From positions 682,001 through 746,000 of the forward strand of contig OY253672.1 in NCBI GenBank assembly GCA_958009085.1: DNA of 64,000 nt, written 5' to 3'. Under the pieces are notes generated by a model, which did no database searches, had not been told where the DNA came from, and worked only from the letters and a program-made list of their open reading frames with translations. The stretch's first letter is position 1, and each line of letters starts with the position of its first letter. A program made the translations under genes and the position numbers. Below, in pieces: positions 30,601-38,537 of the stretch. Source of the stretch: Protoeuglena noctilucae. Lineage: Eukaryota.

Positions 30601-31687
30601 AGTTAGAATCGCTTCAGCTCGCGAACGCTGGCCTCCTCTGCGCGTGCAGGTTCGTGGTTGCCCAGACTGCGAGCGTGAGCGGGGCGGGGGAGCACGAGTC
30701 AGCTCGCTCCCTGGGCACGGGGTCGCTGATGCCGAGGGGTGGCGCGGCGACGCCGAGCACGTCTCGGACGGTCGTCTTCGTCGGGGTGGACGGCCAGGTC
30801 GTGGGCCGCGTGGAGGTGGAGGACAAGATGAGGTCCAACGCGGCTGCGACCGTCGCGGCCCTCCGCGCGCGCGGCTACCGGCCCGTGCTGCTCTCCGGGG
30901 ACCAGGCCGGCCCGGCGCTGGCCGTCGGGCGCGCCGTGGGCATCCCGGACGAGGACGTGCACGCGGGGGTCAGTCCATGGGACAAGGCAGCATTCGTGGA
31001 AACGGAGCAGCGCGCGGGGAGGCGGGTGGCCATGGTCGGGGACGGGATCAACGACACGGGTGAGAAGCGCTCTGTAACAGCGCTCCGATGCTCGCGCGGC
31101 CATGCAGGCCAGGATGCTTCGCCTCGGCCGGTGCCCGCAGTTGCGCTGGCCAAGGCGGACGTCGGGATGGCGATGGTGGGCGGCGTCGACGCCGCCAGCG
31201 ATGTAAGCGACGTGGTGCTCACACGGGGCAACATCCGCCAGGTGATGGCGCGGCTCGCCGAGAGTGCTGTGAGTGGATGTGCCACCGTGACATGCGGCCA
31301 AGCTCGCTGGCGACGGCCCCCGCAGGTCGTGGATGCCCTGGACCTCAGCCGCGCCACGCTGAATCGCATCAAACAGAACCTGGCGTGGGCGTTCGGGTAC
31401 AACGCTGTCGGGATCCCGGTGGCCGCGGGGGCTCTCCTACCACGCTTTGGCGTGGCGCTGACGCCCGCGCTGTGCGCCGCGCTCATGGGCCTTTCCTCCA
31501 TTGGCGTCGTCCTCAACTCGGTGGGGCTCAGGTCAGCCGCCCGCCGCCGCCGGGGGACCCAGCGTGCACGCCGCGCACCCTGCGCTCGTTATCCTCGCCC
31601 CATCGTCCTCGCCGCAGGGTTGAGGCGGCGCGCCTGGCGACGACGTCGCGACGGGAGGAGGAGCACTTCTTGAGGGGGGCCGACTGA
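27696..31687 (+). CDS. PAA1: Chloroplast Cu-transporting P1B-1 ATPase (PAA1/HMA6-like); multi-exon
   Basis: Transit-like N-terminus and Gly-rich stretch; HMA domain GMHCGGC; PDMDSLV; YFEEPAMLLAFV; DESAMTGE; ACPCALGLATP; DKTGTLT; GDGINDT; YN and MGLSS Cu(I) ligands. Confidence 0.92.
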
Positions 31688-32315
31688 GGCGCGGAGCGCG
31701 CTTCCTGGCAGCCCAGTCTGACGAGGGCCACGCGCTCGCTACGGGGGCTATGGACCTCGCACTGCCGCATCCGCCAGACATTACCATTACGCTAGCAGTT
31801 GCGGCGCCCGTCGGCGCTGCGACCCCCGATTTAAGCTCGCTGGCCCCCGAGACGCATCGCGCGCCAGCCCCGAGGCCCCCGTGATCCACCCCGGCGCTCG
31901 AGAGTCGGTGCTGTTGACGTGAGCGCGAGGGCCCGCCGCCCTCAGCCCGTGTCGCGCCACGCACGGGCATGGCACGATTCGAGGCGCAGCGCGGCGAATC
32001 CGTAGTGTCCGCGGCGATGCAGCGGCTGCTCGCGGCGCTAACCTCACCTCTTCTGTCCAGCGAGCGAGCAAGAGCGCCGCGCTGCGGCTGAGGACAAGCT
32101 CACCACGGTTCTCGCCCCCCACGCAGTGCTCCACGTGCCGAGCGTCGCGAAGTCCTGCCAGCAAGGTGCGTAAGGGATGTGTTGGCCCCGGCGGGGACGA
32201 GGGCGGCTTCCGCGGGCCGGGGAGGTCATCGCAGGCTGCCGAAGCACATTGCAATCGCCCCCGTGGCATGCACGCAGCGCCCATGCCGCGCGGATTGCGC
32301 GCCCTCCCGCTTGCC

Positions 32316-32871
32316 ATGGTGAAGGAGAACATGAACGCGGAGCTCCGCCGGGCGGTGAAGATGGCGGACGCGGCTGGCGTGCGGGAGCTGGTCTTCGACC
32401 CCTGCATCGACGTGGACGCCCCCGACGCCCGGGGCCGCACCCCGCTGTGGTGGGCGGCCGCCCTTGGCCACCCTGAGGTCGTCGCAGAGCTGCTGGCCGT
32501 GTTAGCGACGTCGTCCGGCCTCAACGAGGCCGCCCTCGCGCGGGGGGACCTCTCGGCGCTCGAGGTGCGCATGGCGCGGGATCGCCCAGTGACTCTTGCC
32601 GGATAGGATGTATACATCACGAAGAAGGGGCCGCGCGGCGCTCGGGAGCTGCCGCTGGCGCAGCTGACCTGCACGGTCGCCCACGCAGGTCGCCGTGCTG
32701 CTTGGGCACTACGACGTGGTGAAGGAGCTTCTCGGCGTGGACGCCGACTTCCGGCGCTCCGTGTTCCTCGCCCTCCTTCGCCGTGACAACCGCATGCTGC
32801 GCTTGCTCATCGCCGCGCAGGCCGATCGTGATTCATCCGCACGCGAAGCCGACCAAGCGCCCCACGCGTGA
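32316..32871 (+). CDS. Small ankyrin-repeat protein; 2 exons (start uncertain, may extend upstream)
   Basis: DVDAPDARGRTPLWWAAALGHPEVVAELL and SALEVAVLLGHYDVVKELL ankyrin consensus repeats. Confidence 0.8.
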
Positions 32872-32971
32872 CGATGGGCGCGCCGCGAGATTCCGAGCAT
32901 TCTATTGCATCTGATTGCTTGCGGCGTGCGATTCGCGCGCACATGCAACGGCGGCGCCCGTAAGGCGCGCC

Positions 32972-34053
32972 CTATGTCTGCGGCAACCTGCGCTTGATGC
33001 TAACGAGCGCATCGAATTGCCCCCCGCGCGCGACTCGGCTCGACACCCCCGCCTCCGTCGGCTGCACGCTCCACGCCGGCTCGCCCGTGCTCGCCGAGAC
33101 GCTCGCCCCCGCCACGTTGCAGCCAGGCAGGCCGCACACAGCTCTGGGGCCAAGGCACACCGGCACACCCGTGTGGATGTAAGCAGGCCACGCCGGCCTG
33201 CTGCGGCCCCTCCACTCACACCCACGACCAACCGCGCGAGCCCCGCCCAAAGCCTCACACCTGGGCACTTCCAGCGCAAGCGAGTCGGCGATCTGTGCCG
33301 TGAACTCCGCGTACCGCTGCGTCGGCGTCATGGGCACCTCGTTGGGGTCCAGGGCCACGTACCCCTCCGGCGCAGCCAGGTTCAGCCAGAACTGGCAGCT
33401 GGCCCGGACGGGGCGGTCGAAAACGCCCCCGCAGCGCCCGCACACCAGTGCTAGCGTGGTGTTGGCAGTTGCCCTGCAAGCAAGGGAAGCTGCCGTGGCC
33501 GCCGGTGCCCTGAGCTCCGGCGCAGGAGGCGCCGCGACGCATACGCCGCTCACCGCACGAAGAAGGACTGCCTGCCCGCAGCATCGGCCTCCAGCAGAAC
33601 GTCCACGGGGCGGTCCCCGCAGCGTTCGAACTCCACAGGGACGCCCACCAGGTGCAGATCCCGCACCGTGGCGGACCTGCTGATGAGCCAGGGAGGCCGG
33701 CCCATGGAGAAGTCCGACCTGGACAGCGTCAGAGGGGGTTCCTCGCGCTTGAGTTGCCGCCTCCGCCGGGGCGCAGCCTCCCTCGCCCGCCCGTCGCCCT
33801 CGCCCTGCTGAGGCAGGGGCCCGTCGGCCTTGTCCCTCTCTCTCTGGTGCGACCGCCGATTCGGCGCGCCCCACGGCTGCCTGTCCCACGACTTGCTCCC
33901 CTGCCCACGCACGACCCAGGCTGGCTTCGCAGAGTGTGCCGAAGGGCGCAGGCTCGGCCCGCCCCACGCAAGCTTTAGATTCGTCGGGCGTCGTCTGCCA
34001 TGGTGAGTATCAACTCCCTGGAAAACGGCGCCAGGCGCCCGCCACGCCGCCAT
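32972..34053 (-). CDS. YceD/DUF177 large rRNA subunit accumulation protein, probably plastid-targeted; multi-exon
   Basis: Arg/Pro-rich N-terminal extension; ATANTTLALVCGRCGGVF (CxxC), QIADSLALEVP...VCGLPGC, C-terminal FDALVSIK, matching the DUF177 layout. Confidence 0.75.
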
Positions 34054-34337
34054 CACTCGCCGCCCGGGCGCAGCGAGCCGTGAGGGTGCGCAGGCAGGGC
34101 GGGGAAGAACTTGATGGCCTGAACCACGATGAAGAATAAAATGAGACCCAGCAAGGCTACGATGAGCTCAAACTCTGCAGAGGATCGGCGGGGCGGCGGG
34201 TTCGCAGGTCTCGTGTGCGCATCGCGCTGCCGTGCACCCAGAACCTGCGCCAGAGCGGGGCGGGACAGGCCGCCGTCACCAACCGCCAAAACGAGCTCGT
34301 TTGCCCGGTTCGCCAGGCTGCCTCTCCTCTCGCGCAT
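34053..34337 (-). CDS. Putative 59-aa single-pass membrane micro-protein; 2 exons (intron 34175-34279)
   Basis: Spliced product MRERRGSLANRANELVLAVEFELIVALLGLILFFIVVQAIKFFPALPAHPHGSLRPGGE*; intron G|GTGACG...CCTCTGCAG| of 105 nt; clear hydrophobic helix; stop overlaps the YceD ATG. Confidence 0.5.
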   Translation of the reverse strand: MRERRGSLANRANELVLAVGDGGLSRPALAQVLGARQRDAHTRPANPPPRRSSAEFELIVALLGLILFFIVVQAIKFFPALPAHPHGSLRPGGE

Positions 34338-34759
34338 TCAGAGGCACTCGGGACCGTCGCGGCTGCAGTAGCGGGCTCCGTCTGCACAGCAGCGCGTCGC
34401 CATTGGGAAGGTAACGACAGTATGATTGGATTGCCGCCATTGGCACAAACCGGCAGCCTGGGACAACAGCGCGGGCCTGGCCGTGCCGGTGACACGCTTG
34501 ACAGGGCCCCAACTGCGCGCCGGCTGCCATGGCGCCGCGCACTCGCACTCGGCTTCGCCAACGAAACCTGCTCTGCTCTCAGCAGCAGCTCCCACAGGGC
34601 ATCCGTGAGGGCACACAGCGCTGCGTTGCATTCAAGGGAGACATTCAACAAGCGTAACACCGCTGGGAACGTGGTGGAGGGAAGGGGGGCTGCTTGAACA
34701 TGCAGGGGACTTCGGAGGCGCGCGAAAGCGCCTCCGCTTTCCTCGGGGTGCAGTTCGGC

Positions 34760-35729
34760 ATGCCTCGTCCTCCACTGGACCCCAAGCAGGTGCCTGACGC
34801 TGCGCGCGTTCCTCCTGACGAGCAGCAACGGCAACAACAAAGCTTGCGCGAAGGGGCAGCAGTCGATTTGTCAAGAGACAGAGCGACGAGCACAGGCAGA
34901 ATGTGCCTCGTTCGTCGCGCCCGCAGGACCGGGAGGCGCGGCTCCGGTACTGGGTTGGGAGGTGTCGGGAGGTGTTCGAAGTGTTTGAGCCAAAAGAGGG
35001 GATGGGCATTGATCGCGCCGCGATCCCCAACATCCTGCAGGTCGGTCGCAAGCTCTCGCATGCCTGTGCCCAAGCAGCACGCTGCTTTAGCCGAACCGCG
35101 TCGTGCACAGCTCCTGGTTCTCCCTGCTTCCAGGCGCTCGGTTTCAATCCCACGCTAGAGCACGTGACGGAGGTGGAGGAGCGCATCGTTCCCAGGGGCC
35201 CGGATGGGACCATCCCGGAGGATGCCAACATTCAGCTCGAGCCTTTCTTGAGAGAGCTCCCGAGACTCCTCGCGGACACGAAGGCGAGACGCTCGCTGCA
35301 GCCGCCCTTGCAGGACATGCGCCGCGGGGCAGCCTCGATATGCATGTTTATGCTGGTGCCTGTACGCAGGAGGGCCACAAATGGATCCGGGATTCGTACC
35401 ACAAGCTCGTGCGGGCCTTCGCGGCCTTCGGTGAGGCCGCTGCGCCGCGCAGACCTGGGTAGACCGTCGCTTATGCTCTTAATTGTCGAGACGGCGACGG
35501 CATCGAACGGGCCACCCCCACCGTCCCCACAGACCCCGAGGGCAATGGGTGGGTGGACGCGCAGGACATGCTGAACGTGCTCCGTGACCAGGACCACGCG
35601 CTCAACACGGGCCCCGTCTTCACCGACGAGGAGGTCCAGTCCTTCCTGCACGCGTGCGCCGATGACCAGTCCCGGATCTACTACGAAGAGTACTGCTTCA
35701 AGCTGGCCGAAGACGGCCGCAATTTGTGA
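34760..35729 (+). CDS. DRC8: Dynein regulatory complex subunit 8 / EFCAB2-like EF-hand protein; multi-exon
   Basis: EVFEVFE...ILQALGFNPTL; RDSYHKLVRAFAAFDPEGNGWVD; FTDEEVQSFLHACADDQSRIYYEEYCFKLAEDGRNL*. Confidence 0.8.
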
Positions 35730-35818: not shown

Positions 35819-38537
35819 TTAGATGGCAGCGACGCGCATCAGGTGCGCGTTGAGGTCGGAGGCCAGGTTTAGCAAGGAGCGCACGGCCTCTGAGAGGTTC
35901 GAGTGCGCCTCCCGGTCCCGGATTTGCTCCCTGAGCGCCTGGGCCTGGCCCTCGGTCTGGACCAGCCGCGCCTCCAGCTGCGCCACCTGCTGAAGGACGT
36001 CGTTCTGCAACAGCTGCGCCCTGCGCGTCTCGACCTTGCCCAGCCGGTCGCGCGCAACCTGCCGGAGGAACGGTGTCCTGCGCGACAGCAGCGCCGGGAG
36101 ATGAATGACGTCCCAGCCCATGCAGCCCATCTGGCTTGCCAACGACAGATGCCAGCCAATGCGACCAATCCCCGGCCCACAAGTGTGCCGAGCCCCGTCG
36201 CTTGCCGCTGTGCACCCCGCCGCGCCCCGCGACCCTCACCTTAGCTGCAGCATCCTCCGCTGCTTCTCCAGCAGAGCGCGCTTCTCGACGGCTCCCGCCC
36301 GGACCTGGTCGGCGCTCGGCAGGTTGGCCAGCTCCTGCTGCACCTTCTCTGTGGCCTCCTGGATCTGCGCCACCTCCTCATCCACCTTCGACCCCAGCTG
36401 GTCCAGCTTCTCCAACTCCGCACGCCTCGCCGCCAGGTCGTCCTGCGCCGCCACCAGACCGGGCATGGGACCCCGTGAGGCTAGCCGCGACGGTGATGCG
36501 CGCTGTTACCGATGAGCCTCCACCAATGTGCTGTCATCCACCGCCCCTTCATCTCAGCTCCGCTTCGCTCAACCCGCTCGCATCCACCGCTCGCATCCAC
36601 CATCCGTCACCTTGAGCCTGTCCTTGGTCTGCCGTGCGTTCTCCCCTTGCATCTTCTTGTACTCCAGCTCGTCCCTCATGGTCGTGAAGTCCTTGGCGTT
36701 TGGCAGCGCGCTCGTGTTCTTCAGGGCCTCCCCCAGACGACGCAGGCCGTTCAGCAGCTCCATCACCTCGGCCTGAGACTCCGCCAGCCGCCCCTCCGCG
36801 TGGTGCTTGGCGTCCGCGGCGCCGTCGATGAAGTTGCGCATCTCGGACTCCTGCACCTCCAGGCGCCGGAACTTGTCCGCCCGCTCCTCTGGCGTGTCGC
36901 CGGCCTCAGCCACCTGAGCGCAACGGGCGCAGGGGCGCGTGAGCCCGAGCCATGCCAGCGGACATCCACATGCACCTGATAGGCTGGCATGTGGTCCGCT
37001 TGCAATATGGCCACCCTGGCGAGACCAGCTTAGCCTGGAACACTTCCTCGTCGGCCCAAGCCAGACAGCTGCGACGGGGACCGGGCCCCTGCGCGCCGCA
37101 CCTGCACCGGCTGCGTGGCCTTGCTGAGCCTGTCGTCCATGCGCTTGACGTCCGCGACGGCCTCCCTCAAGCGAGCGTCCAGGGACTGCAGCTCGGCCAG
37201 GTCCCGTGCCTGCTGCTCCGCCAACGCCGCCTTCTGCTTCTCTAACGGCTCGTGCATGCGGTCAAGCTCCGCCTGCAGGTCGTACCGTTTGTCCGTCAGC
37301 TGCTGCACCTCCTCCTGGAGCCTGCGAGGGTGGGGTAGGAGCAGGCGCGATGGGTCGACACAGCGAACGTCGCACGGCCCCGCCAGCGGCGCAGTCCTGC
37401 GCTCCTCCGCCGCGTGCGGTCACCTCAGCGCTTGGCCCTTGAGCGGCGTCTCCATGAGCTCCGCCTCGGCCTCCTGGATGGCCTTGTCGACCTCCTTGAG
37501 CCGCGCCTGCACGGTCCGCTGTTCCGACATGAGCATCCGCTCCTCCTGCTGCAGCTGCATCCACTCCTCCTGCTGGTGCACCTGCGGCGCGAAGCAGGTG
37601 GGGTGGGTAGGTTGGCACTGTAGCGACATGCACCTTCATGCTACGTGATGGAGGGTACACGTGACGCGCTGGCATGCGGTCTCACGTCCAGCTCCTGGAT
37701 CCGCGCGTCGATGGCCCCGCGCTGCTCCTCCACCCGCGCCTCCGCCTCCTTCGCCGCCGCCTCCGCCTTGTTTCGGGCCCGCACGATCTCCTCCAGACGC
37801 CGCCTCTCCGACTCCGCCTCCTGCTTGATGCGCGGCAGCTCCGCCGCCATCGCCTCCGCGTTCGTCCCCAGCTGCGCGTTGTCGATCACCGCGTTCAGGT
37901 CCGCCAGCTCCCCCTTCAGCGCCGCCACCTCCTCCAGCAGCTGCGCATGGCGCCGCTCGCTGGCCGCCTGACGGTCCGACTGCTCCTCCCACCGGTGGAT
38001 CTGCTCGTCCAGGCGGGCGTTCTCCTCGACGATCTCGCGCAGACGCTTCTGGAGCTGCGTGATCCAGTAGTTGCGGTCCAGCACGTTCCGCGGGCCCGCG
38101 GACGACCCCGCACGCAGGCCCGCCAGGCCCTGCTGCGTGACGGGGCGCTCCGACACGGACACGTTCATCGCCTGCGCGATGCCCTGGCTGACGGAGACCT
38201 TGCCCGTGCCGGGACGCATGCCCGCCGTACCCGGCGCCGCGCCGCGCATCGCGGTGCCCGGGGGCATGATGGGGGGCGCGCCTCCAGCACCCATTGGCGC
38301 GGCCATCGGCGCCGCCAGGCCCGGCATGCCCCCGGCCGGACCCGCCCCTGCGTTTGGAAAGAGGTAAACTAGTCACGCAAGCCCCGACTCGCACTCGCAA
38401 GGGACATGCGAGGCGTCTCGGCCAATTGCAACAGCGCTGGCCCTTTCACCTCCGAAGCCGCCCCGGGAGGACCTCCCCGATGATTGGGGCGGAGCCATCG
38501 GGTTTCCAGTTCCTCCTCGAGATGCAGGTCGGTCCAT
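35819..38537 (-). CDS. IFT74: Intraflagellar transport protein IFT74/72; multi-exon
   Basis: MDRPASRG start; RPGT repeats; VSVSERPVTQQGLAGL...RNVLDRNYWITQL; long coiled coil; MRDELEYKKMQGENARQTKDRL. Confidence 0.92.

Follow-up and report, generated by a model that had tools for sequence, protein, structure and literature searches.

Two reading frames that share a single base lie on the minus strand of a 64,000-nucleotide stretch of Protoeuglena noctilucae DNA (contig OY253672.1, positions 682,001 to 746,000), which we call the window and number from its first letter. The upstream frame, ORF1, would encode a small membrane protein, and the downstream frame, ORF2, encodes a protein assigned by its sequence to the DUF177/YceD family. 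The host genome comprises 26.3 Mb in 27 contigs, with about 67% GC and short introns. Two intron-split nuclear rbcS genes together with psaH place the host, by established knowledge, in the green lineage.

Sequence statistics were drawn from 859 kb of the 26.3-Mb genome, and coding potential was scored with a self-trained periodic Markov model from whose training the locus was left out. Start contexts were graded by the general Kozak rule, from which the host's own consensus may differ, and a set of starts taken from the 859 kb is contaminated by internal ATGs. Eight of the 12 listed runs contain the stretch; four of these are RNA (X1 to X4), and all four were aligned to the locus. The RNA evidence consists of contigs assembled from the short reads of a single study with three samples at most, and such contigs may fuse separate transcripts, lose rare forms and cannot fix a transcript start.

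Structure and splicing of the two frames

ORF1 begins at ATG 34337 with exon 1 (34280..34337; 19 codons plus one nucleotide) and, after a 105-nt GT..AG intron (34175..34279), is completed by exon 2 (34053..34174), which carries the membrane helix, a short Pro/Gly tail and the TGA at 34055-34053. Joined on the minus strand, 34337-34280 and 34174-34053 give 59 codons plus TGA (180 nt). The intron is in frame, stop-free and non-coding by its score, and its retention would yield a product of 94 aa. An earlier note on this DNA had drawn the two-exon, 59-codon frame with one membrane helix from the sequence and had proposed the removal of the intron from RNA as a check. The sequence agrees with this model, and the 34280/34174 joint, with the intron skipped, is found in RNA contigs of all four runs, while intron sequence is carried by none of the listed RNA contigs. 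The same note had claimed that the spliced frame holds no internal ATG and that a weak start is followed by a strong one. Both points are borne out: no ATG other than the intronic one at 34222 lies between the two starts, and the context of ORF1 (T at -3, C at +4) is by the general rule weaker than that of ORF2 (G at -3, G at +4). An ATG-free run of 174 nt has a probability of about 0.10 and is not beyond chance by itself.

ORF2 comprises exon 1 (33554..34053), which has RNA cover and encodes a basic, acid-poor N-terminus, a linker and the start of the domain; exon 2 (33261..33473), with the DUF177 core and its CxxC; and exon 3 (32972..33143), which runs to the stop. The spliced frame of 294 aa is stop-free, and its introns are skipped in RNA contigs of three and of four of the four runs, respectively. 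In Pfam, PF02620 was the sole match to exon 2 (E 0.0041; 17.6 bits, under the 33.2 cut-off). A profile HMM trained on 30 bacterial PF02620 proteins (of 36 found in 41 genomes) gave the spliced ORF2 33.0 bits over residues 134-246, and the best of 500 shuffles reached 3.0. Cysteines are arranged as C-x2-C at 178-181, with a second pair, C-x4-C, at 241-246. By this profile match, ORF2 is a divergent member of DUF177/YceD, as the earlier note had proposed. A six-frame genome search with PF02620 gave no candidates.

Maize DUF177A, a protein of 293 aa whose domain occupies residues 152-289, is required for 23S rRNA to accumulate in plastids, according to the accessible text of Yang et al. 2016 (PMC5049393). 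ORF2 resembles it in length (294 vs 293 aa), in its C-terminal domain and long N-terminal extension, and in the CxxC; it differs in the spacing of the second cysteine pair, given there as C-x3-C, and it is divergent from PF02620, the one exon tested scoring under the Pfam cut-off. Its first 55 residues include 1 acidic and 9 basic residues, a bias typical of transit peptides, so that the transit-like N-terminus described before is present; ORF2 would probably be imported into the plastid and support 23S rRNA accumulation.

The choice of 34053 as the only plausible start of ORF2 also holds. The next in-frame Met is residue 117 (33705), and residues 41-116, which precede it, bear a coding signature (reached by 13, 1 and 11 of 3000 draws); 34053 is therefore the only AUG able to supply them. 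Residues 1-40 have no significant codon signature (null 2728/3000). A further ATG at 34001 (minus strand, 34001-33975), 52 nt past the DUF177 start, lies in the ORF1 frame and opens an 8-codon ORF. It has a strong context (A-3, G+4), sits in a small hairpin and would trap ribosomes that had passed both starts. Protein searches for relatives with which to compare collinearity gave same-species records only and no algal DUF177 locus. Candidate L002, from the metagenome and genome scans, was rejected as a chance match antisense to a bacterial kinase, and L085 and L086 as chance matches that overlap an unrelated bacterial gene at its end. Solved structures gave no match for the locus.

Coding signal of ORF1 and the upstream region

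Does ORF1 encode a protein? Among the six frames it scores positive only in its own (+7.3 bits vs -12 to -80), and a separate scoring with the same model type gave +10.4 bits. None of 3000 stop-free dinucleotide shuffles matched its score or its hydropathy. When the peptide was kept fixed and codons were drawn from the composition of 1179 nt of local non-coding DNA, the score was reached in 41 of 5000 and 21 of 3000 draws in two runs. Exon 2 carries this codon signal (38/3000), and exon 1 alone is not significant (427/3000). The helix spans residues 19-37 of the spliced peptide and has a Kyte-Doolittle 19-mer value of 2.74, which is equalled by only 3 of the 2451 ATG-ORFs of 50-100 aa in the 859 kb; the per-codon score of ORF1 is equalled by 255 of them, a set that includes real genes. 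Coding signature and helix both exceed their null models, and on these statistics ORF1 is likely to be coding.

Homology searches gave no homologue of ORF1 outside this species. A word-indexed search of 5.8 billion sequences yielded 16 candidates, two of which were ORF1 matches, both from the same species, and a full phmmer search of 1.84 billion representatives found the same two records only. Pfam and NCBIfam contain no family for ORF1, and ORF1 is single copy in its own genome. Matches in the ESM Atlas (best 0.91) were generic bacterial membrane peptides with no common family, and we do not count them as evidence. One same-species variant differs in the intron only, and another has a different C-terminal tail. 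The ENA record P0001, an unspliced ORF1 frame, matches the window exactly as far as the hairpin described below; from there on it has a different tail of 9 residues that does not map to the locus, and it may be a chimera or a strain variant.

These data bear on the possibility that ORF1 is a regulatory uORF or a gene relic, which would lie on one mRNA with DUF177 and divert ribosomes from it while its peptide has no function. The single copy and the missing homologue suit such an origin, as does a per-codon score that one finds in 255 other ATG-ORFs, real genes included, and uORFs are described as very common in green algae and as forming a continuum with bicistrons in the available part of PMC7896298. 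On the other hand, coding-biased synonymous codons (21/3000) and a helix in the top 3 of 2451 are unexpected of a neutral uORF; the searched databases are also poor in eukaryotic micro-proteins, and membrane peptides of 59 aa are hard to detect. We consider this reading fairly unlikely.

Upstream of ORF1, the probable 5' leader (34338..34400, minus strand) measures about 63 nt. The furthest RNA 5' ends are at 34399 (X1) and 34400 (X2, deduced from contig size), and contig ends give a weak hint only. The short ORF that the earlier note had placed at 34403-34338, ending directly before the ORF1 ATG, is found in the sequence: it has 21 codons (34338..34403, minus strand) and abuts ORF1 in the same frame with one TGA between them. 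It is doubtful as a third cistron, because ATG 34403 sits 3-4 nt outside the furthest RNA contig ends and its codon score is borderline (synonymous null 391/2000 and 105/3000). Selenocysteine read-through that would fuse this ORF to ORF1 found no support, as an Rfam search over 31500-35000 recovered no SECIS element and only two sub-threshold chance matches. ATGs 34440 and 34530, whose frame ends in the intron, were rejected for their non-coding score and their position outside the RNA contigs. Still further upstream, 34401..34541 is a probable bidirectional promoter shared with a divergent EF-hand gene. It scores as non-coding, contains three CCAAT words on the minus strand and corresponds to the roughly 140 nt between the furthest contig ends of the locus and of the EF-hand gene. 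No RNA contig is listed there in the four runs, and this gap by itself proves nothing.

The stop/start overlap and the predicted junction hairpin

The TGATG overlap (34051..34055, minus strand) is present in the sequence as the earlier note had described it: the A of the ORF1 TGA (34055-34053) also opens the ORF2 ATG at 34053, which sets ORF2 in the -1 frame relative to ORF1. That note had taken the overlap as a signature of termination and reinitiation, a claim that is now weakened. Stops overlapping an ATG in this way (preceding TG/TA) occur at 1930 of 22003 ATGs in the 859 kb (8.8%), so that TGATG is weak evidence on its own. In addition, the TURBS motif, UGGGA, does not occur in the final 100 nt of ORF1, GGGA is absent from the whole of ORF1, and abutting ORFs are found in Auxenochlorella as well.

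A feature that was not among the observations of the earlier note is a predicted RNA hairpin at the junction (34036..34096, minus strand; -39.1 kcal/mol), with its loop at about 34069-34064. Its z score is -2.45, and 2 of 200 shuffles were as stable; an extended form (34101-34029; -45.1 kcal/mol) is less unusual (15/200). In the predicted fold, the ORF1 stop and the ORF2 AUG lie on the 3' arm; the bases on either side of them are paired, the AU of the start codon falls mostly within an internal loop, and the ORF1 AUG is for the most part unpaired. Of 396 61-nt windows of the spliced mRNA, none is more stable than this hairpin. With the best window taken per site, its stability was reached by 1 of 700 stop-ATG controls and by none of 185 GC-matched ones, the GC match being lenient because the surround includes U-rich helix codons. 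With both peptides fixed, 11 of 400 sequences reached it, and their mean was -33 of the -39 kcal/mol. The GC-rich peptides thus account for most of the stability and leave a modest excess.

Such a structure raises the possibility of a TURBS-independent cellular stop/restart switch, in which the hairpin would lock the DUF177 AUG until ribosomes finishing ORF1 unwind it, stop at the TGA and restart at the ORF2 AUG. If true, the supply of a plastid ribosome-assembly factor would be tied to ORF1 translation, and algal bicistrons with overlapping stop and start codons would have a second mechanism beside leaky scanning. The one-base overlap and the rank of the hairpin, first of 396 windows and reached by 1/700, 0/185 and 11/400 controls, would fit a coupling of this kind, and viral stop/restart requires RNA structure near the overlap, as stated in the accessible part of a review (PMC10275272). 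However, the hairpin straddles the overlap rather than sitting upstream of it, much of its stability is due to the GC-rich peptides and was judged against a lenient GC match, UGGGA is missing from the last 100 nt of ORF1, and a weak ORF1 context with no internal AUG is what leaky scanning requires. Coupling was also unsupported at the algal loci tested in PMC11291117, as far as its accessible text goes. It is unlikely in our judgement. The comparison with viral TURBS is similarly divided. As in caliciviruses and influenza B, stop and start share a nucleotide, are out of frame and have RNA structure adjacent to them, whereas the locus is cellular, lacks UGGGA and has a structure that encloses the overlap, and its ORF1 is short, cap-proximal and weakly started, so scanning can reach ORF2. 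Viral TURBS reinitiation needs a sequence complementary to 18S rRNA, according to the available sections of the same review.

How continuous is the RNA across this junction? The ORF1 RNA extends past the ORF2 start in contigs of X1, X2 and X4. Contig X1-1 (2733 nt) starts at 34399 and covers ORF1 and the three exons of ORF2; it also enters the convergent ankyrin gene, so that a single transcript is not proved by this contig. Both ORFs are bridged in this one of the four runs, and two more runs pass the overlap. The contigs of X2 and X4 that hold the ORF1 junction stop at 34038, which is 15 nt beyond the A of the ORF2 ATG, and X2 and X3 each have an ORF2 contig with an end at 34038 or 34039. 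These ends, found in three of the four runs, coincide with the 3' foot of the hairpin, and we infer that they mark a library or assembly stop. The earlier claim of one mRNA for the micro-protein and DUF177 therefore stands in part: splicing, RNA past the ORF2 start, the coding signature and the helix speak for it, but bridging is seen in one run of four.

The repeated contig ends, together with a sole bridging contig that also joins the convergent gene, could instead point to two transcripts, namely a DUF177 mRNA whose start lies within ORF1 exon 2 and a separate ORF1 mRNA that overlaps DUF177 at its 3' end. We find this quite improbable, since the break lies 15 nt past the ORF2 ATG and an RNA starting there would be without its start codon, the break matches the hairpin foot, where a library or assembly stop would be likely, and intron sequence is missing from the listed contigs. 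Neither AATAAA nor TGTAA occurs in 34800-33900, which is uninformative as none follows ORF2 either. Highly improbable is a fused protein made by splicing to AG 34119 or by a -1 frameshift before the hairpin: the DUF177 frame is open from 34167, AG 34119 is in phase after a pyrimidine-rich run, and ORF2 is in the -1 frame with a strong stem about 5 nt past ORF1 codon 43, but no 34280/34118 joint was found in the four runs (rare forms may be lost from contigs), the stem is not preceded by a slippery heptamer with the AAA or UUU that a -1 frameshift calls for, and the DUF177 frame upstream of the ATG scores -47.8 bits.

Probable leaky scanning and the algal bicistrons

Taken together, we regard this as a probable bicistronic locus of the green-algal class, for which leaky scanning is the likeliest mechanism. 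The full proposal, that one mRNA gives both proteins by leaky scanning, is put forward tentatively, at a little under an even chance. Leaky scanning is favoured by the short leader, the poor ORF1 context, the lack of an intervening AUG and the good ORF2 context. One capped and spliced mRNA from near 34400 would carry both proteins. Some scanning ribosomes would initiate at the weak ORF1 AUG and produce a 59-aa single-pass membrane micro-protein, while others would skip it, travel 177 nt without encountering an AUG, unfold the hairpin at the junction and initiate at the strong AUG 34053 to produce the 294-aa DUF177/YceD protein, which would probably enter the plastid and support 23S rRNA accumulation. 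The stop/start overlap would reflect tight gene packing and hold no coupling signal. Less ORF2 protein would be made because of the hairpin; a strong hairpin ahead of an AUG should hinder scanning, and this counts against leaky scanning to ORF2.

Nuclear bicistronic loci are known in green algae (Gallaher et al. 2021, PMC7896298). In Auxenochlorella, leaky scanning is supported by Kozak mutants of other loci and overlapping stop and start codons have been noted (Duenas et al. 2024/2025, PMC11291117), and the inter-ORF size is 0 in 5 of 43 Auxenochlorella rows of dataset S01 (PMC11892635), all as given in the accessible portions of these sources. Against the figures available from PMC11291117 and PMC11892635, the present ORF1 is 180 nt long (medians 291-357) and its leader about 63 nt (medians 54-83). 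Like those loci, it has no AUG before ORF2, an ORF1 context that is poorer by the general Kozak rule, and near-zero spacing, here a 1-nt overlap, as in the five rows mentioned; those sets also include small membrane ORF1s and plastid-targeted members. It is unlike them in that its ORF1 is an orphan and its junction forms a strong predicted hairpin, whereas PMC11291117, in its accessible text, reports no conserved inter-ORF structure.

According to the accessible part of PMC5049393, Chlamydomonas and Chlorella lack DUF177, so some reference species could not show this pair. DUF177, YceD and PF02620 were not found in the supplementary files of PMC11892635; in the supplements of PMC7896298, two of three word matches were DUF1777, and the pair was not found. 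A full-text literature search for DUF177 with bicistronic listed three papers on bacterial toxin-antitoxin systems, with a coverage that mostly leaves out subscription papers and bioRxiv supplements. The bicistronic habit is known in other green algae, and the pair of ORF1 with DUF177 was not found reported in these sources. If the proposal is true, one more marine green alga has a bicistronic locus and, with it, a micro-protein so far unannotated; the locus includes DUF177, a gene absent from some of the model species in which bicistrons have been catalogued. Furthermore, a one-base overlap within a strong hairpin would offer a test case for leaky scanning versus reinitiation at zero spacing, and so compact a junction could be used to link two genes for expression in algae.

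At 32300-32972, one RNA contig links the 3' end of DUF177 to the ankyrin gene that converges on it from the plus strand, a hint that the 3' UTRs of the two genes overlap. The divergent EF-hand gene contains a GC-AG intron (35284-35369, plus strand) whose joint is found in RNA of all four runs, and the GC..AG placement leaves the spliced product unchanged. Convergent with the EF-hand gene is a long coiled-coil gene (35823-38372, minus strand) with weak coiled-coil matches only in Pfam, which we take to resemble IFT74.
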